A stretch of 64,000 bases of DNA, taken from NCBI RefSeq assembly GCF_003018255.1, contig NZ_CP027440.1; one strand, written 5' to 3'. Position 1 is the stretch's first letter. Each line of letters opens with the position of its first letter. The DNA is from Escherichia coli (GTDB taxonomy: Bacteria; Pseudomonadota; Gammaproteobacteria; Enterobacterales; Enterobacteriaceae). Below are positions 56,421 through 64,000 of this stretch, in pieces. Both the position numbers and the translations under genes were made by a program. The notes beneath the pieces are model-generated. The model was given only the letters and a program-made list of their open reading frames with translations. It had not been told where the DNA came from and did not search any database.

Positions 56421-57094
56421 AATCTGATAGACCGCGCCTTGAAAAGAGGCCAAAGCCTGCCATTTTTAGCCCAATTCGGCGATGACCTGGATCAATCGTC
56501 CCGGCCTGCTTTTATCAACTGCATAATCAATCAAAATTACCGAAATTTCATGCACAATCACATAAATCACTTTTGCTTATCTTGTGTCAGATTTTTTTAT
56601 CTCCTTATGGATTTTAGGCAAAAACAGTAGCATGAAACGTTATTACCAATTAAGGCAGTATAAAATGCTGGTTTTCTCGTCAGTTCAAGGCAGGATAAGG
56701 GTTAACACGCCTTTATGACAGTCAGGAATTGGCTGTTTCTCTAACGACGCCCCTTTTAGCCTTAAATAGAAAATCCACTTTAATTTCAGCCAATTAATAA
56801 AGAATTTTGCGCTAAAGCACATTTCTGTACCAATAAGCTTGCCATTTGACCTGTATCAGCTTTCCCGATAAGTTGGAAATCCGCTGGAAGCTTTCTGGAT
56901 GAGCAGCCTGCTCATCATATTTATGCAGTAATTGAGATCCCCTCTTCACCGTATTAACCGATGCGAAAAGGACAACAAGGGGGCGAATGCGAGGCGCGCG
57001 TATGACACGCAAACCCCGTCGCCACGCTCTTTCTGTGCCCGTGCGCAGCGGTTCGGAAGTGGGGTTCCCGCAGAGCCTGGGGGAGGTTCACGAT

Positions 57095-60000
57095 ATGTTG
57101 TACGATAAATCCCTTGAGAGGGATAACTGTGGTTTCGGCCTGATCGCCCACATAGAAGGCGAACCTAGCCACAAGGTAGTGCGTACTGCAATACACGCAC
57201 TGGCCCGCATGCAGCACCGTGGCGCGATTCTCGCCGATGGTAAAACCGGTGACGGTTGCGGCTTGCTGTTACAAAAACCGGATCGCTTTTTTCGCATCGT
57301 TGCGCAGGAGCGCGGCTGGCGTTTAGCAAAAAACTACGCCGTCGGGATGCTCTTCCTGAATAAAGATCCTGAACTCGCCGCTGCCGCACGCCGCATCGTT
57401 GAAGAAGAGCTGCAACGCGAAACGTTGTCGATTGTGGGCTGGCGTGATGTCCCCACTAACGAAGGCGTGCTGGGTGAAATCGCCCTCTCCTCTCTGCCAC
57501 GCATTGAGCAAATTTTTGTGAACGCCCCGGCAGGCTGGCGTCCGCGCGATATGGAGCGCCGTCTGTTTATCGCCCGCCGCCGCATTGAAAAGCGTCTCGA
57601 AGCCGACAAAGACTTCTACGTCTGTAGCCTGTCGAATCTGGTCAATATTTATAAAGGTCTGTGTATGCCGGCGGATCTGCCGCGCTTCTACCTGGACCTC
57701 GCGGACCTGCGTCTGGAATCGGCTATCTGCCTGTTTCACCAGCGCTTTTCCACTAACACCGTACCGCGCTGGCCGCTGGCGCAGCCGTTCCGCTACCTCG
57801 CGCATAACGGTGAAATCAACACCATCACCGGTAACCGCCAATGGGCGCGTGCGCGTACCTATAAATTCCAGACGCCGCTGATCCCTGACCTGCACGACGC
57901 CGCGCCGTTCGTCAACGAAACCGGCTCTGACTCCAGTTCGATGGATAACATGCTGGAACTCCTGCTGGCAGGCGGGATGGATATCATCCGTGCCATGCGT
58001 CTGTTAGTGCCACCAGCCTGGCAGAACAACCCGGATATGGACCCGGAACTGCGTGCCTTCTTTGACTTTAACTCCATGCATATGGAGCCGTGGGATGGTC
58101 CGGCAGGGATCGTGATGTCCGATGGCCGTTTCGCCGCCTGTAACCTCGACCGTAACGGTCTGCGTCCGGCACGCTACGTCATCACCAAAGATAAACTGAT
58201 CACCTGCGCCTCTGAAGTCGGTATCTGGGATTATCAGCCTGACGAAGTGGTCGAAAAAGGCCGCGTAGGGCCAGGCGAACTGATGGTGATCGACACTCGC
58301 AGTGGGCGCATTCTACACTCGGCAGAAACCGATGATGACCTGAAAAGCCGCCATCCCTATAAAGAGTGGATGGAGAAAAACGTCCGCCGTCTGGTACCGT
58401 TTGAAGATCTGCCCGATGAAGAAGTGGGTAGCCGCGAACTGGACGACGACACGCTTGCCAGCTACCAGAAACAATTTAACTACAGCGCGGAAGAGCTGGA
58501 TTCGGTGATCCGCGTACTGGGTGAAAACGGTCAGGAAGCGGTCGGTTCGATGGGCGACGATACCCCATTCGCCGTGCTCTCCAGCCAGCCGCGCATTATT
58601 TACGACTACTTCCGCCAGCAGTTTGCTCAGGTAACCAACCCGCCAATCGACCCGCTGCGCGAAGCGCATGTTATGTCGCTCGCCACCAGTATCGGTCGTG
58701 AAATGAACGTCTTCTGTGAAGCAGAAGGCCAGGCGCACCGTTTAAGCTTTAAATCGCCGATTCTGCTCTATTCCGATTTCAAACAGCTCACGACGATGAA
58801 AGAGGATCACTACCGCGCAGATACGCTGGATATCACCTTTGACGTCACTAAAACCACGCTCGAAGCGACGGTGAAAGAGCTGTGCGACAAAGCCGAAAAA
58901 ATGGTACGTAGTGGCACCGTGCTGCTGGTGCTCTCCGACCGGAATATCGCTAAAGATCGCCTGCCGGTTCCGGCTCCGATGGCGGTTGGCGCGATCCAGA
59001 CCCGTCTTGTCGAGCAAAGCCTGCGTTGCGATGCCAACATCATCGTAGAAACCGCCAGCGCCCGTGATCCGCACCACTTCGCCGTGTTGCTGGGTTTCGG
59101 CGCGACGGCTATTTATCCATACCTTGCCTATGAAACGCTGGGCCGCCTGGTAGACACCCACGCGATTGCCAAAGATTATCGTACCGTGATGCTCAACTAT
59201 CGTAACGGCATCAACAAAGGCTTGTACAAAATCATGTCCAAAATGGGCATCTCCACCATCGCCTCTTACCGCTGCTCGAAACTGTTTGAAGCGGTCGGTC
59301 TGCACGATGATGTCGTGGGCCTGTGCTTCCAGGGGGCGGTTAGCCGCATTGGGGGGGCTAGCTTTGAAGACTTCCAGCAGGATCTGCTGAATCTGTCGAA
59401 ACGAGCCTGGCTGGCGCGTAAGCCTATCAGCCAGGGCGGCCTGCTGAAATACGTGCACGGTGGCGAATACCACGCCTACAATCCGGACGTGGTGCGCACG
59501 CTGCAACAGGCGGTACAGAGCGGCGAGTATAGCGACTATCAGGAATACGCGAAGCTGGTTAATGAGCGTCCGGCAACCACGCTACGCGATCTGCTGGCAA
59601 TTACGCCGGGTGAAAACGCGGTCAACATTGCTGATGTTGAACCGGCAAGCGAACTGTTTAAACGCTTCGATACCGCCGCGATGTCTATCGGCGCGTTAAG
59701 CCCGGAAGCCCACGAGGCGCTGGCGGAAGCGATGAACAGCATCGGCGGTAACTCAAACTCCGGCGAAGGCGGTGAAGACCCGGCGCGCTATGGCACTAAC
59801 AAAGTGTCGCGCATCAAGCAGGTGGCGTCCGGTCGCTTCGGCGTTACTCCGGCGTACCTGGTCAATGCCGACGTCATTCAGATAAAAGTCGCCCAGGGCG
59901 CGAAGCCGGGTGAAGGTGGTCAGTTACCGGGTGATAAAGTCACTCCTTACATTGCCAAACTGCGCTATTCGGTGCCGGGCGTGACGCTGATCTCCCCGCC

Positions 60001-61555
60001 GCCGCACCACGATATCTACTCTATTGAGGATTTAGCGCAGCTGATTTTCGACCTCAAGCAGGTTAACCCGAAAGCGATGATCTCCGTGAAGCTGGTTTCC
60101 GAACCGGGCGTAGGCACCATCGCGACTGGCGTGGCAAAAGCTTATGCCGATTTAATCACCATCGCAGGCTATGACGGCGGCACCGGCGCAAGTCCGCTTT
60201 CATCGGTGAAATACGCAGGCTGTCCGTGGGAGCTGGGGCTTGTTGAAACCCAACAGGCGCTGGTTGCCAACGGCTTGCGTCACAAGATCCGTTTGCAGGT
60301 CGATGGCGGCCTGAAAACGGGTGTCGATATCATCAAAGCAGCGATTCTTGGCGCGGAAAGTTTTGGCTTCGGCACTGGCCCGATGGTAGCGCTTGGCTGT
60401 AAATATCTGCGAATTTGCCACCTGAACAACTGCGCCACGGGTGTAGCAACTCAGGATGACAAACTGCGTAAGAATCACTATCACGGCCTGCCGTTCAAAG
60501 TGACTAATTACTTTGAGTTTATCGCCCGTGAAACCCGCGAGCTGATGGCACAGCTGGGGGTAACGCGTCTGGTGGATCTGATTGGTCGCACCGACCTGCT
60601 GAAAGAGCTGGACGGTTTCACCGCCAAACAGCAGAAACTGGCACTGTCGAAGCTGCTGGAGACTGCTGAGCCGCATGCTGGTAAAGCGCTCTACTGCACC
60701 GAAAACAACCCGCCGTTTGATAACGGCCTGCTGAACGCGCAGTTGCTGCAACAGGCAAAACCGTTTGTCGATGAACGCCAGAGCAAAACCTTCTGGTTCG
60801 ATATCCGCAACACCGACCGTTCTGTCGGCGCATCGCTTTCAGGCTATATCGCCCAGACGCACGGCGATCAGGGGCTGGCTGCCGATCCTATCAAAGCGTA
60901 CTTCAACGGCACCGCAGGCCAGAGCTTCGGCGTGTGGAACGCGGGCGGCGTGGAACTGTACCTGACCGGTGATGCCAACGACTATGTCGGTAAAGGCATG
61001 GCGGGCGGCTTAATCGCCATTCGTCCTCCGGTTGGCTCAGCCTTCCGCAGCCATGAAGCGAGCATTATCGGCAACACCTGCCTGTATGGCGCGACCGGTG
61101 GTCGTCTGTATGCCGCAGGCCGCGCGGGTGAACGTTTCGGCGTGCGTAACTCCGGTGCTATCACCGTGGTAGAAGGCATTGGCGACAACGGCTGTGAATA
61201 TATGACGGGTGGTATCGTCTGTATTCTGGGTAAAACCGGCGTTAACTTCGGCGCAGGCATGACTGGCGGCTTCGCTTACGTTCTCGATGAAAGCGGCGAT
61301 TTCCGCAAACGCGTTAACCCGGAACTGGTCGAGGTCTTAAGCGTTGACGATCTGGCGATCCATGAAGAGCATCTGCGCGGTCTTATCACCGAGCATGTTC
61401 AGCATACCGGTTCTCAGCGCGGTGAAGAGATTCTGGCGAACTGGTCAACCTTCGCCACTAAATTTGCGCTGGTTAAACCGAAGTCCAGTGATGTAAAAGC
61501 ACTGCTGGGTCACCGTAGTCGTAGCGCAGCAGAGTTGCGCGTGCAGGCGCAGTAA
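57095..61555 (+). CDS. gltB: Glutamate synthase (NADPH) large subunit
   Basis: Track ORF 56987..61555; start set at ATG 57095 (MLYDKSLERDNCGFGLIA...) preceded by GGGGGAGG Shine-Dalgarno, 1486 aa; in-frame ATGs at 56987 and 57002 are alternatives. Confidence 0.95.
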   Translation: MLYDKSLERDNCGFGLIAHIEGEPSHKVVRTAIHALARMQHRGAILADGKTGDGCGLLLQKPDRFFRIVAQERGWRLAKNYAVGMLFLNKDPELAAAARRIVEEELQRETLSIVGWRDVPTNEGVLGEIALSSLPRIEQIFVNAPAGWRPRDMERRLFIARRRIEKRLEADKDFYVCSLSNLVNIYKGLCMPADLPRFYLDLADLRLESAICLFHQRFSTNTVPRWPLAQPFRYLAHNGEINTITGNRQWARARTYKFQTPLIPDLHDAAPFVNETGSDSSSMDNMLELLLAGGMDIIRAMRLLVPPAWQNNPDMDPELRAFFDFNSMHMEPWDGPAGIVMSDGRFAACNLDRNGLRPARYVITKDKLITCASEVGIWDYQPDEVVEKGRVGPGELMVIDTRSGRILHSAETDDDLKSRHPYKEWMEKNVRRLVPFEDLPDEEVGSRELDDDTLASYQKQFNYSAEELDSVIRVLGENGQEAVGSMGDDTPFAVLSSQPRIIYDYFRQQFAQVTNPPIDPLREAHVMSLATSIGREMNVFCEAEGQAHRLSFKSPILLYSDFKQLTTMKEDHYRADTLDITFDVTKTTLEATVKELCDKAEKMVRSGTVLLVLSDRNIAKDRLPVPAPMAVGAIQTRLVEQSLRCDANIIVETASARDPHHFAVLLGFGATAIYPYLAYETLGRLVDTHAIAKDYRTVMLNYRNGINKGLYKIMSKMGISTIASYRCSKLFEAVGLHDDVVGLCFQGAVSRIGGASFEDFQQDLLNLSKRAWLARKPISQGGLLKYVHGGEYHAYNPDVVRTLQQAVQSGEYSDYQEYAKLVNERPATTLRDLLAITPGENAVNIADVEPASELFKRFDTAAMSIGALSPEAHEALAEAMNSIGGNSNSGEGGEDPARYGTNKVSRIKQVASGRFGVTPAYLVNADVIQIKVAQGAKPGEGGQLPGDKVTPYIAKLRYSVPGVTLISPPPHHDIYSIEDLAQLIFDLKQVNPKAMISVKLVSEPGVGTIATGVAKAYADLITIAGYDGGTGASPLSSVKYAGCPWELGLVETQQALVANGLRHKIRLQVDGGLKTGVDIIKAAILGAESFGFGTGPMVALGCKYLRICHLNNCATGVATQDDKLRKNHYHGLPFKVTNYFEFIARETRELMAQLGVTRLVDLIGRTDLLKELDGFTAKQQKLALSKLLETAEPHAGKALYCTENNPPFDNGLLNAQLLQQAKPFVDERQSKTFWFDIRNTDRSVGASLSGYIAQTHGDQGLAADPIKAYFNGTAGQSFGVWNAGGVELYLTGDANDYVGKGMAGGLIAIRPPVGSAFRSHEASIIGNTCLYGATGGRLYAAGRAGERFGVRNSGAITVVEGIGDNGCEYMTGGIVCILGKTGVNFGAGMTGGFAYVLDESGDFRKRVNPELVEVLSVDDLAIHEEHLRGLITEHVQHTGSQRGEEILANWSTFATKFALVKPKSSDVKALLGHRSRSAAELRVQAQ

Positions 61556-62986
<1,431 letters not shown>

Positions 62987-63168
62987 GCCTGTCCCAGCGC
63001 CGCCTCCTCAGAAAAGAGTCGGCGCTGAAATTCTCCTTTCTTTCTGGAAAGCGCCTCGCATAATCTGAAGAAAACCAATGTAATACGCTCATCTGGATTG
63101 TTACCGGTAGATGCCCGGCGTATAGCTGATTCCATTATTCAACGCAGCGCCATATAAAGGGACAGATA

Positions 63169-64000
63169 ATGGAATCGCTCTCAGAGAGAACCTCAACAGG
63201 CTACCAGCAAATCCACGACGGTATTATTCACCTGGTCGATAGCGCCCGGACGGAAACGGTACGTAGCGTTAACGCGCTGATGACCGCGACATACTGGGAA
63301 ATTGGCCGACGAATTGTCGAATTTGAACAAGGTGGCGAGGCCAGGGCTGCGTATGGTGCGCAGCTAATCAAGCGACTATCAAAGGATTTAAGTCTAAGGT
63401 ATAAGCGTGGGTTCTCTGCAAAAAACTTACGCCAAATGAGGCTTTTTTACCTCTTTTTTCAACATGTTGAAATTCGCCAGACAGTGTCTGGCGAATTAAC
63501 ACCATTGGGAATTCCGCAGACACCATCTGCAGAATTCCCATCGGCAAAGATTTGGCAGACGCTGTCTGCCAAATCTTTCCCCCTGCCCTGGTCCACCTAC
63601 GTCCGTTTACTTTCCGTTAAAAACCCTGATGCCCGCAGCTTTTATGAAAAAGAGACGCTCCGCTGTGGTTGGTCTGTCCGCCAGCTAGAGCGGCAAATTA
63701 CGACCCAATTTTATGAGCGAACACTACTGTCACATGACAAATCAGCCATGCTGCAACAACACGCTCCTGCCGAGATGCATATTCTTCCGCAACAGGCGAT
63801 ACGCGATCCCTTTGTGCTCGAATTTCTGGAGTTGAAAGATGAATACTCAGAATCTGATTTTGAGGAGGCGCTGATCAACCACCTGATGGATTTCATGCTG
63901 GAACTTGGGGATGATTTTGCCTTTGTTGGTCGGCAGCGAAGGTTACGCATTGATGACAACTGGTTTCGGGTCGATCTGCTGTTTTTCCACCGCCGTTTAC
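63169..64000 (+). CDS. DUF1016/YhcG-like PDDEXK-nuclease-family protein (partial; 3' end beyond window)
   Basis: Own translation from ATG about 63169, open to window end: MESLSERTSTGYQQIHDGIIHLVDSARTETVRSVNALMTATYWEIGRRIVEFEQGGEARAAYGAQLIKRLS...PWSTYVRLLSV...IRDPFVLEFLELKDEYSESDFEEALINHLMDFMLELGDDFAFVGRQRRLRIDDNWFRVDLLFFHRRL; absent from track because it has no stop in the window. Confidence 0.7.
   Translation, partial: MESLSERTSTGYQQIHDGIIHLVDSARTETVRSVNALMTATYWEIGRRIVEFEQGGEARAAYGAQLIKRLSKDLSLRYKRGFSAKNLRQMRLFYLFFQHVEIRQTVSGELTPLGIPQTPSAEFPSAKIWQTLSAKSFPLPWSTYVRLLSVKNPDARSFYEKETLRCGWSVRQLERQITTQFYERTLLSHDKSAMLQQHAPAEMHILPQQAIRDPFVLEFLELKDEYSESDFEEALINHLMDFMLELGDDFAFVGRQRRLRIDDNWFRVDLLFFHRRL
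63471..63577 (+). repeat. Three consecutive hairpin-forming palindromic units inside the DUF1016 coding sequence
   Basis: aattcgccagaca-g-tgtctggcgaatt (perfect 13-bp arms); ggaattccgcagac-acc-atctgcagaattcc (14-bp arms, 2 mismatches); aagatttggcagac-gct-gtctgccaaatctt (perfect 14-bp arms); coordinates approximate. Confidence 0.8.

Follow-up and report, generated by a model that had tools for sequence, protein, structure and literature searches.

A probably ancestral gltD-yhcG-nanQ junction in Escherichia coli and a conserved palindrome inside the predicted nuclease gene yhcG

Organization of the gltD-yhcG junction

The window, i.e. the whole stretch of 64,000 nucleotides of E. coli DNA analysed here, carries gltB, gltD and the 5' part of yhcG, a gene of the DUF1016 family, in this order. 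The features of the junction are as follows.

56987 to 61555: gltB (ORF list).
61568 to 62986, plus strand: gltD, glutamate synthase small subunit, 472 codons, stop codon TAA at 62984-62986 (ORF list, and gltD annotation in every best-hit genome).
62987 to 63168: gltD-yhcG spacer, 182 nt.
62989 to 63040: 52-nt stretch missing from K-12, which has about 7.1 kb instead (sequence comparison).
62995 to 63027, plus strand: hairpin CAGCGCCG...CGGCGCTG with a T-rich tail (inverted repeat I9; RNA fold −21.1 kcal/mol, z −2.6).
63041 to 63168, plus strand: yhcG upstream region, with its homologue in the K-12 yhcF-yhcG spacer; other genera have it in recognisable form.
63169 to 64000, plus strand: 5' part of yhcG, 277 of 375 codons, ATG at 63169, frame open to the window end (translation of 63169 to 63999).

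The hairpin at 62995 to 63027 is likely the gltBD terminator; it was not flagged by a simple terminator scan because its loop is 9 nt long. A promoter scan of the gltD-yhcG spacer found no sigma-70 consensus match. A preliminary description of this DNA had placed the start of the ORF about 180 bp past the gltD stop, close to the 182 nt measured, and had reported gltF and the yhc fimbrial genes as missing; tblastn with K-12 GltF, YhcA, YhcD and YhcF likewise gave no match in the 64 kb. The window itself stops at codon 277 of yhcG. In LF82 and MS1170, which are 99.9% identical to the window, yhcG is intact and is followed by nanQ.

The K-12 order given in the preliminary description is correct: gltD, gltF, yhcA, yhcD, yhcE (interrupted by IS5), yhcF, yhcG and nanQ. 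K-12 does not share the arrangement of the window, since about 7.1 kb of gltF-yhcADEF lie between its gltD and yhcG. In place of 62989 to 63040, K-12 has 13 nt, a palindrome, an AT-rich spacer, gltF-yhcA-yhcD-yhcE::IS5-yhcF and 55 nt. The K-12 yhcF-yhcG spacer aligned to window positions 63041 to 63168 with a local alignment score of 110 (shuffles 16.0 ± 2.2), and the K-12 left flank had no similarity to the window (score 16.0; shuffles 16.5 ± 2.2). The GC content is 43% in the K-12 island, 32% in the gltD-gltF spacer and 56% in gltD. A target-site duplication around the island, suggested by a weak resemblance in a three-way alignment, was not significant and was rejected. IS remnants or direct repeats, which had been proposed as something to look for at the window junction, were not evident on inspection of the sequence (made without an IS library screen), and the spacer there is the conserved, presumably ancestral one.

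Haplotypes of the gltD-nanQ locus

Among 5426 complete E. coli genomes, a 582-nt probe composed of the gltD 3' end, the spacer and the yhcG 5' end matched contiguously in 3140, and a longer junction probe of 1601 nt in 2419. The K-12 island was present at a coverage of at least 80% in 1122 genomes (about 21%), a yhcG-less haplotype with a gltD|nanQ junction in 947 (17%), and a 3'-truncated yhcG in roughly 13%. Alleles of yhcG with one to three repeat units also segregate at the locus. With at least four haplotypes among these genomes, the junction is strain-variable, as had been supposed. That gltD-yhcG is the majority order in E. coli had escaped the preliminary description.

The K-12-type and yhcG-less haplotypes have in common the 13 nt and the palindrome after gltD. 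The breakpoints of the E. coli haplotypes other than that of the window coincide with a palindrome of about 27 nt; in the truncated yhcG allele (e.g. in O104:H4 2009EL-2050 and in A17) the breakpoint is exactly the right edge of the third palindrome of yhcG described below. The gltD-nanQ locus is a rearrangement hot spot. In the truncated alleles, the 3' part of yhcG is replaced by a 101-aa ORF that had no match in NCBIfam or PADLOC; it is labelled 'transposase' in RefSeq. The yhcG-less junction and the window spacer share 9 nt in inverted orientation (GGTAACAAT and ATTGTTACC, respectively), which was regarded as chance.

PMC5216030 describes the yhc locus as a beta-class chaperone-usher operon that, within its small set of strains, occurs in phylogroup A alone; the restriction rests on that published set and not on the 1122 island genomes. 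The 'yhc' fimbrial operon is attributed to Korea et al. 2010 and Nuccio & Baumler 2007, as these are cited in PMC5216030.

Origin of the junction

Synteny of gltD-yhcG-nanQ was found in E. whittamii, Escherichia sp. E1V33, Pseudocitrobacter, C. koseri, C. amalonaticus and Superficieibacter, and adjacency of gltD and yhcG in Kluyvera, C. gillenii and S. enterica arizonae. The spacer between the two genes is recognisably conserved across these Escherichia, Pseudocitrobacter, Citrobacter, Kluyvera, Superficieibacter and Salmonella arizonae genomes. The terminator hairpin appears to be part of the ancestral spacer: the spacer comparison found it conserved in E. whittamii, Escherichia sp. E1V33, O157 and Pseudocitrobacter, and K-12 is without it. 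Judged from synteny in one genome per species rather than from a tree, gltD-yhcG-nanQ appears to be the order from which the other enterobacterial arrangements derive; it is also the one that most E. coli genomes have, K-12 being the exception. The adjacency is not purely vertical: the spacer and yhcG of C. gillenii are flanked by a duplicated 97-nt piece of the gltD 3' end, so that yhcG can be re-acquired via gltD homology.

The preliminary description had allowed for either a deletion or the ancestral state. Outgroup synteny and the conserved spacer favour the latter, in which the window strain would never have had the gltF and yhc genes at this site and nothing would have been deleted; K-12 and its relatives would have gained the low-GC gltF-yhcADEF operon of about 7.1 kb, in exchange for 52 nt of the spacer, among them the gltD terminator hairpin. 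It is highly improbable that the window strain had a K-12-like ancestor from whose locus gltF-yhcADEF was later deleted. Palindromes of the same family do lie on both sides of the segment from gltF to yhcG in K-12, so that palindrome-mediated deletions do occur at the locus, and the yhcG-less haplotype could stem from a K-12-like allele through such an event. However, a deletion would not recreate the conserved spacer, and the spacer of the window, along with the terminator hairpin proper to it, has been kept in other Escherichia species and can still be recognised in four further genera. The window also lacks a palindrome after gltD and any remnant of the island, and the K-12 island is low in GC and confined to about a fifth (21%) of genomes. 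The outgroup comparison already contradicts a deletion.

We give a probability of about 0.85 to the overall explanation, namely an ancestral gltD-yhcG-nanQ junction, an insertion in K-12 and a rearrangement locus marked by palindromes. The gltD-yhcG junction itself is ordinary and already known. For annotation, K-12 is a poor reference for the gltD locus and gltF should not be expected after gltD; the yhc fimbrial operon would be a lineage-specific addition.

The YhcG protein

The 277 residues of YhcG encoded in the window match the 375-aa YhcG of E. coli LF82 at 100% identity, and the residues past 277 were taken from genomes 99.9% identical to the window. By hmmscan, LF82 YhcG contains DUF1016_N (PF17761) at residues 19-184 (E 3.5e-42), all within the window, and the PDDEXK domain YhcG_C (PF06250) at residues 208-360 (E 1.6e-56), of which the window covers 208-277. 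Both matches bear out the earlier assignment of the product to the PDDEXK family. The PADLOC profile PDLC04807 (PDC-S02) matched residues 8-370 with E 3e-136. NCBIfam has no YhcG family, and a sequence search of PDB gave only noise (E > 0.1). Among 81 homologues, E245, D284 and K286 are invariant and D269 nearly so; D269 still falls within the window, and D284 and K286 lie past its end.

The AlphaFold2 model of YhcG is of moderate quality (pLDDT 71, pTM 0.44). Foldseek found NucS/EndoMS (2vld, 5gke) as the best structural matches of the C-terminal domain, with E about 5e-4 and probability 1.0, at a target TM-score of 0.37 and an rmsd of 6 Å from this model of pLDDT 71; other fold matches were Can2 and Bax1. 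YhcG is modelled as a DUF1016 protein of two domains, one helical and N-terminal and the other a PD-(D/E)XK nuclease with a putative NucS/EndoMS-like fold. A nuclease with the E-D-E(I/L/V)K signature and a relationship to DUF91 and YraN was predicted by Kosinski 2005 (PMC1189080), and deletion of yhcG is synthetically lethal with dnaB, dnaN and parE hypomorphs (PMC2672614). Most likely, YhcG is a structure- or sequence-specific DNA endonuclease, as predicted here, that acts in defence or in the processing of replication intermediates.

Palindromic repeats within yhcG

The part of yhcG in the window contains three tandem repeat units, each holding a palindrome of about 27 nt. They were not mentioned in the preliminary description.

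63472 to 63588, plus strand: three tandem 39-nt units of 13 aa each, IRQTVSGELTPLG / IPQTPSAEFPSAK / IWQTLSAKSFPLP.
63471 to 63497: palindrome 1, AATTCGCCAGACAGTGTCTGGCGAATT, 13 of 13 arm positions complementary, stem of 11 bp with a 3-nt loop.
63510 to 63536: palindrome 2, AATTCCGCAGACACCATCTGCAGAATT, imperfect, 10 of 13.
63549 to 63575: palindrome 3, GATTTGGCAGACGCTGTCTGCCAAATC, 12 of 13.

As RNA, the three hairpins of the window fold with −65 kcal/mol (z −10.9); as DNA, they fold with −44.5 kcal/mol (z −11.7). When up to three mismatches were allowed, the palindrome pattern occurred only in yhcG within the 64-kb window. There is no T-run after the internal hairpins and the terminator scan found none there, so they do not qualify as intrinsic terminators. 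A search of 62700-64000 against Rfam gave only a chance microRNA match (E 0.32). The segment encoded by the repeats is predicted to be disordered, with AlphaFold2 pLDDT below 50 at residues 103-125. The number of units varies: O157:H7 has one, its gene being 78 nt shorter, and other alleles have two.

Conservation of the hairpin in DUF1016 genes

DUF1016 genes of many phyla, ranging from E. coli to Wolbachia phage WO and Acidobacteria, carry a hairpin of 11-13 bp in the same place, even where the proteins share as little as 27% identity. In 84 of 85 homologues there is a site at which 9 or more of the 11 stem pairs form, and the mean pairing was 9.59/11, compared with 5.54 ± 1.7 after synonymous-codon resampling. 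Ser in the motif is encoded by TCT 108 times out of 114, while TCT makes up 21% of all Ser codons in the same genes. The covariation score was 0.300, compared with 0.107 in shuffles (none of 500 reached 0.300) and at most 0.10 in slid controls, and 158 cells were changed on both stem sides, compared with 65 ± 9 in shuffles (0/500); the sequences in this test are interrelated and the structure was defined from the same sequences. Covariation of the stem can also come from template-switch (quasi-palindrome) mutation without selection on pairing.

Nine distant homologues of 27-39% identity, picked by protein similarity alone with tblastn on phage records, all have a hairpin at the same position with differing stem sequences. 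A search of viral contigs that included the protein alignment found one locus only, because the patterns derived from the alignment were too specific. The palindrome lies in another reading frame in three loci (L097, L117 and L120) and in 4 of 92 metagenomic genes.

The palindromes might be the mere DNA shadow of a protein motif, I-x-Q-T-x-S, with no role at the nucleic acid level. This motif is indeed conserved in the closest subfamily, where it adjoins a conserved (S/P)W(S/G)H motif. Such an explanation is nevertheless scarcely tenable in view of the pairing (9.6 of 11, compared with 5.5 after resampling), the near-exclusive TCT codon and the behaviour of Leu, whose partner residues change with its codon: Leu as CTC pairs with downstream 'GE' and Leu as TTG with 'AK'. 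It is already contradicted by the frame-shifted examples and by the distant homologues, in which the hairpin is kept while the encoded peptides are unrelated; the extragenic copies and the predicted disorder of the encoded segment also speak against it. These results show that the palindrome is a nucleic acid element and not a protein motif.

In 1.06 Mb of related loci, 110 palindrome copies lie inside yhcG ORFs; outside them we found only Escherichia-specific copies adjacent to the gene and one other. In Escherichia, an extra palindrome lies about 17 nt past the yhcG stop codon (centre 31 nt). No DUF1016 gene is nearby in about 28% of metagenomic palindrome copies and in 15 of 38 viral loci, and so the palindrome is not strictly tied to the gene. 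Copies outside DUF1016 genes were located in phage intergenic regions and in defence islands.

Possible role of the hairpin

We tentatively prefer, at well short of an even chance, a role of the hairpin or cruciform as a putative cis element tied to the nuclease, which could serve as the substrate of the enzyme, as the site where it binds or as a means of restraining its expression. The presence of the hairpin would make the locus break and recombine there. The fuller proposal, that the hairpin is a putative cis-acting element coupled to its own nuclease and at the same time a site of exchange for genes or neighbouring cassettes, is possible but doubtful. If true, it would account for the gltD-nanQ haplotypes bounded by palindromes and explain why palindromes have stayed behind alone in defence islands and phage genomes, and it would define a previously unrecognised class in which a protein-coding family keeps a conserved structured DNA or RNA element in its own ORF.

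The hairpin could instead act in the mRNA and limit the expression of a potentially toxic nuclease, for instance as a translational brake, as a target of RNase III or of another processing enzyme, or by binding YhcG itself, the rearrangements being a side effect. The fixed position of the hairpin, always within the transcribed ORF, and the high stability of the stems (−65 kcal/mol for three) agree with this, and variation in copy number could tune expression. Stem mismatches, however, comprised 25 G:T and 32 A:C; this lack of a G:T excess argues against a purely sense-strand RNA role, as G:U-compatible mismatches are not favoured over A:C. Since the internal hairpins also have no U-tract and match no Rfam family, and the extragenic phage copies lie in varied contexts, we consider an mRNA role rather unlikely. 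It is more unlikely still that the palindrome is a selfish, self-perpetuating sequence that is kept perfect by template-switch mutation, is tolerated in a disordered linker and has local instability as its only effect. Several observations would suit a selfish palindrome, i.e. one to three units per gene, deletion and replacement breakpoints at the palindrome edges, copies in phage intergenic regions and defence islands outside DUF1016 genes, the absence of a G:T excess and the disorder of the linker. Neutral palindromes should be lost in many lineages, because palindromes are prone to deletion and the linker tolerates changes in length, yet at least one copy is kept at the same position in 84 of 85 close and 9 of 9 distant homologues despite identities as low as 27%.

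DUF1016, which is listed among the defence candidates, is a very widespread nuclease family with an enrichment beside restriction-modification and BREX loci. On the preferred reading of a cis element tied to the nuclease, the conserved in-gene hairpin offers a testable handle on DUF1016 recognition or control. The hairpin would also be the reason why yhcG is a length-polymorphic typing marker and why the E. coli locus has many haplotypes.

Comparison with known systems

The K-12 gltBDF-yhcADEF-yhcG locus shares with the window gltB and gltD upstream and yhcG and nanQ downstream, and K-12 YhcG is orthologous to YhcG of the window with 97% amino acid identity. Only K-12 has the gltF-yhcA-yhcD-yhcE::IS5-yhcF segment of about 7.1 kb and the palindrome after gltD, whereas the window has the 52-nt stretch, probably ancestral, with a different terminator hairpin.

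As a protein, YhcG of the window has the full two-domain architecture and the conserved acidic and Lys residues of the PD-(D/E)XK core of the DUF1016/YhcG family (COG4804), and nothing sets it apart from this family. The best structural matches of its C-terminal domain are NucS/EndoMS (DUF91) and archaeal Holliday-junction-resolvase-like PD-(D/E)XK nucleases, a relationship also predicted from the profiles of Kosinski et al. 2005. A mismatch- or junction-cleaving activity of YhcG would be putative; identity to these enzymes is just 13-19%, the TM-score is about 0.37 and the N-terminal domain is unrelated. PDC-S02 is a candidate single-gene defence system in PADLOC, and the literature found on it reports its presence in genomes only. 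The window gene occupies a conserved chromosomal position and not a mobile island.

The LSPA-6 polymorphism of yhcG in E. coli O157:H7 is probably the same indel, i.e. one versus three 39-nt units (78 nt); the LSPA-6 typing alleles presumably differ by exactly 78 bp. The length alleles of yhcG form an LSPA-6 lineage typing locus in O157, and the LSPA-6 literature treats yhcG as a length marker only (PMC3514354). The palindromic nature of the units and their family-wide conservation are not mentioned in the literature searched, and a search for a 39-bp VNTR under the possible name CVN001 gave no usable match. The yhcG hairpin is apparently a DNA or RNA element without earlier description, and it matches none of the Rfam families.

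REP/BIME sequences, Rickettsia palindromic elements (RPEs) and integron attC sites are short imperfect palindromes in which compensatory changes maintain the structure; RPEs sit in frame in coding sequence and enter many unrelated genes, and attC sites mark points of recombination. Like these elements, the yhcG palindrome is in frame, conserved in structure and located at recombination points. It differs from REP/BIME in lacking many dispersed extragenic copies and from attC in having no associated integrase or attC core motifs. Compared with RPEs, the yhcG palindrome belongs mostly to one gene family and to one position, which it keeps across phyla.

Gene order at the gltD-yhcG junction

The right end of the window contains the following features:

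56987..61555, + strand, gltB (ORF list)
61568..62986, + strand, gltD (ORF list)
62995-63027, hairpin after gltD (fold of -21 kcal/mol)
63169 to the window end, + strand, 5' part of yhcG (ATG, 277 codons, translated open frame)
63472-63588, three tandem 39-nt units inside the yhcG ORF
63471-63497, 63510-63536 and 63549-63575, palindromes of about 27 nt, one per unit

The gltD stop codon and the yhcG ATG are 182 nt apart, and the 277 YhcG residues of the window are identical to those of E. coli LF82. LF82 YhcG (375 aa) matched Pfam DUF1016_N at residues 19-184 (E 3.5e-42) and the PDDEXK domain YhcG_C at residues 208-360 (E 1.6e-56). GltF, YhcA, YhcD and YhcF are not encoded anywhere within the 64-kb window. 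In K-12 the order is gltD, gltF, yhcA, yhcD, yhcE with an IS5 interruption, yhcF, yhcG and then nanQ on the opposite strand. The preliminary description had given this order correctly, including the interrupted yhcE, and was accurate in reporting a DUF1016/YhcG-like ORF about 180 bp after gltD and the lack of gltF and the yhc fimbrial genes; the nuclease-like product that it predicted is recovered by Pfam with both domains. Read from its first in-frame ATG, gltB has a longest frame of 1522 codons; the gene in RefSeq (LF82 and other genomes) has 4461 nt (1486 codons), its start lying 108 nt further downstream (window 56987-57094).

Haplotypes of E. coli

Among 5426 complete E. coli genomes, a contiguous 582-nt probe (gltD 3' end, spacer and yhcG 5' end) was found in 3140 (58%), and a contiguous 1601-nt probe reaching 832 nt into yhcG in 2419. 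The K-12 island between gltD and yhcG was present at a coverage of at least 80% in 1122 genomes (21%), and 1142 had a spacer in the K-12 identity class (80-90%). In 947 genomes (17%), such as Nissle 1917, yhcG is lacking and gltD is followed by 67 nt and nanQ. About 720 genomes, e.g. O104:H4 2009EL-2050 and A17, have a window-type junction with a truncated yhcG, annotated as 'DUF1016 N-terminal domain-containing protein'. The closest matches of the window are B2 strains, e.g. LF82 and MS1170 (99.9%). By these counts the arrangement of the window is the majority state of the species and that of K-12 a minority, and the junction varies between strains as had been proposed.

Ancestral order and the K-12 insertion

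The preliminary description had left open whether the window arose by deletion or kept the ancestral state. We searched for YhcG in one genome per species and inspected the flanks. The order gltD-yhcG-nanQ occurs in Escherichia whittamii, Escherichia sp. E1V33, Pseudocitrobacter vendiensis, Citrobacter koseri, C. amalonaticus and Superficieibacter, and gltD-yhcG in Kluyvera georgiana, Kluyvera genomosp. 3, C. gillenii and Salmonella enterica subsp. arizonae. The spacer of the window, including its own post-gltD hairpin, is almost unaltered in other Escherichia species and recognisable in Pseudocitrobacter, and blocks of it survive in Citrobacter, Kluyvera and Salmonella.

Only window 63041-63168, directly upstream of yhcG, has a counterpart in K-12 (score 110 versus 16.0 +/- 2.2 when shuffled), and alignment of the K-12 sequence after gltD found no similarity to the window spacer; thus about 7.1 kb in K-12 replaces window 62989-63040. 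The GC content of this island is 43%, and that of the gltD-gltF spacer 32%, compared with 56% in gltD. The yhc locus has been described as a beta-class chaperone-usher operon, confined to phylogroup A among the strains examined (PMC5216030). Together, outgroup synteny, spacer conservation, low island GC and phylogroup restriction show that the window carries the ancestral gene order and K-12 one derived by insertion, so the ancestral alternative stands and the deletion does not. As a caveat on ancestry, C. gillenii has the spacer and yhcG between direct repeats of 97 nt from the gltD 3' end (L013 5701-5810 and 7100-7210). This looks like the mark of a single-crossover (Campbell-type) integration, or else like a long target duplication, and it shows that yhcG can also be regained through gltD homology.

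A hairpin conserved within DUF1016 genes

The three hairpins in yhcG fold at -65 kcal/mol as RNA (z -10.9) and -44.5 kcal/mol as DNA (z -11.7); hairpins of such quality number seven in the whole 64-kb window, versus 0.75 expected from shuffling. The yhcG gene of O157:H7 has one unit and is shorter by 78 nt; the LSPA-6 typing assay makes use of length alleles of yhcG (PMC3514354). The one-unit allele of O111:H8 (L006 9302-10349) is annotated as frameshifted, a further sign of yhcG decay in some lineages.

At least one hairpin site was found at the same position in 84 of 85 homologues (55-97% identity), with the consensus RATT-NNN-CAGAC-NNN-GTCTG-N'N'N'-AATY in the closest subfamily. The flanking triplets covary (CGC/GCG, GTG/CAC, TGG/CCA, TTG/CAA, CTC/GAG, TTT/AAA, CCG/CGG), so that the residue preceding Q-T (R, V, W, L, P, A, C, F or S) shifts with those after S (GE, AQ, AK or EK); a CTC-encoded Leu is accompanied by 'GE', a TTG-encoded one by 'AK'. 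Of 114 motifs, 108 use TCT for their Ser, a codon that makes up 21% of all Ser codons. Stems hold 9.6 of 11 pairs, compared with 5.5 +/- 1.7 under synonymous resampling, and the covariation score of 98 distinct units is 0.300, against 0.107 in shuffled units (0/500) and at most 0.10 with slid partners.

A pattern scan that left the triplets free gave 40 viral-contig and 133 metagenomic sites. Nearly all have complementary triplets (in metagenomes 3/3 pairs in 87 and 2/3 in 36 of the 133), and DUF1016 ORFs of just 30-50% identity enclose 22 of the 38 viral loci and 92 of the 133 sites from metagenomes. One viral lineage and 4 of these 92 genes read the palindrome in a different frame (EFARQCLTN). 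From phage records, among them Wolbachia phage WO, we selected nine distant homologues (27-39% identity) solely on protein similarity; in each of the nine, a hairpin of 10-13 bp immediately precedes the conserved (S/P)W(S/G)H motif, with different stems (TCCGC/GCGGA, TCGAC/GTCGA, CCAAC/GTTGG, CCACA/TGTGG, CAGGA/TCCTG, GTCAAC/GTTGAC) and unrelated peptides (IASAVRTQL, IFSTPWRIL, IGQQAVDQL). The segment encoded by the hairpin is predicted to be disordered and is the least confident part of the AlphaFold2 model (pLDDT <50, residues 103-125). Pairing, covariation, codon choice, frame, distant homologues and disorder together show that the hairpin is conserved throughout the family as a structure, with its peptide as a passenger. 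Across phyla, the window and the compared loci (L001-L087, L089-L126, L128-L257) share a covarying hairpin of 11-13 bp at one position of DUF1016/YhcG genes, in 1-3 tandem copies.

Palindromes at rearrangement breakpoints

Breakpoints at the E. coli gltD-nanQ locus coincide with palindromes. Escherichia has a copy about 17 nt past the yhcG stop, centred 31 nt downstream. The 67-nt gltD-nanQ spacer of the yhcG-less haplotype (EcPF5, L004 12119-12185; L005; Nissle 1917, H61) holds exactly one copy, identical to unit 1 of window yhcG. In K-12 a copy lies directly after gltD at the left end of the island, and its 13-nt left flank is that of the yhcG-less haplotype. Truncated yhcG (L088 2628-3505 in A17; L127 1884-2761 in O104:H4 2009EL-2050) has its breakpoint precisely at the right-hand edge of unit 3, between ...GTCTGCCAAAT and TGAGAGG; beyond it, about 470 nt carrying an unrelated 101-aa ORF stand in place of the remaining yhcG sequence and the downstream palindrome. 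This ORF is a 'transposase' in RefSeq (WP_000639208.1) and had no NCBIfam or PADLOC match.

Alleles of HS-02 (L007 9050-9700), E. whittamii (L022) and locus L009 diverge from L001 mainly in a hypervariable patch of about 200 nt at and just before the units; identity of the HS-02 and E. whittamii alleles to the window type is 60-78% in this patch, versus mostly 89-100% elsewhere in yhcG. The gltD 3' end of HS-02 is also divergent (annotated 466 aa versus 472). About 6 kb downstream, beyond the window, dcuC is a second presence/absence polymorphism: it lies between nanR and sspB in O157 (L003 19266-20630), O111 (L006 16265-17632) and HS-02 (L007 16264-17631), and is absent from LF82 and yhcG-less B2 strains (L001, L004, L005).

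Beyond Escherichia, single or paired copies of the palindrome lie in intergenic regions of phages and beside type I R-M, AbiE, SocA-like toxin-antitoxin and AAA-ATPase/PDDEXK_9 genes; they may mark where such cassettes entered or were lost. On viral contig L102 (4700-6090, ~26% GC) two-unit arrays flank a two-gene SocA-like toxin-antitoxin cassette beside an integrase; on viral contig L126 (9450-10630, ~26% GC) an array is followed by the same cassette and then a DUF1016 gene. In both, the array lies just downstream of an AAA-ATPase/PDDEXK_9-like ORF.

Possible role of the hairpin and of YhcG

The data show the gene order and its distribution, the boundaries of the K-12 insertion and the domain content, and equally the covarying hairpin throughout the family and the match between breakpoints and palindromes. 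We give a probability of roughly 0.3-0.35 to a functional coupling of hairpin and nuclease, in which the hairpin would be a candidate substrate, binding site or expression brake; it may also cause the local instability. G:T mismatches in the stems were not favoured over A:C, a weak hint that the hairpin acts as DNA rather than as sense-strand RNA. Template-switch correction of quasi-palindromes could produce the covariation without selection and is a partial rival, but it leaves unexplained the retention of at least one copy across the lineages sampled.

A prediction of 2005 classed YhcG as a PD-(D/E)XK nuclease, kin of DUF91 and YraN-like resolvases (PMC1189080). The best solved structural match of its AlphaFold2 model (81 homologues, pLDDT 71) was NucS/EndoMS (E 5e-4), followed by Can2 and Bax1 nuclease domains. 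PADLOC places it under PDC-S02, a candidate single-gene defence system (E 3e-136), and the 'DUF1016 family protein' is enriched beside programmed-inversion targets, e.g. type I R-M and BREX genes (PMC9881135). Deletion of yhcG in K-12 is synthetically lethal with hypomorphic alleles of dnaB, dnaN and parE (PMC2672614). As to function, the best-supported guess is a DNA endonuclease that serves in defence or acts on replication intermediates. The identity of YhcG to homologues from Betaproteobacteria, Acidobacteria, Cyanobacteria, Planctomycetes, Nitrospirae and Deltaproteobacteria (L018-L087) is 55-68%, unusually high for such distances, which suggests frequent horizontal transfer or strong constraint.

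Rfam has no family for the yhcG hairpin, and our literature search, with most subscription journals outside its scope, found no paper tying DUF1016 or yhcG to a palindrome or structured element. The conserved intragenic hairpin appears undescribed, and it can be tested directly. Already known are the polymorphism of the junction, the restriction of the yhc operon to a lineage, the assignment to DUF1016 and the use of yhcG as a length marker; the junction finding itself is correct, ordinary and already explained.
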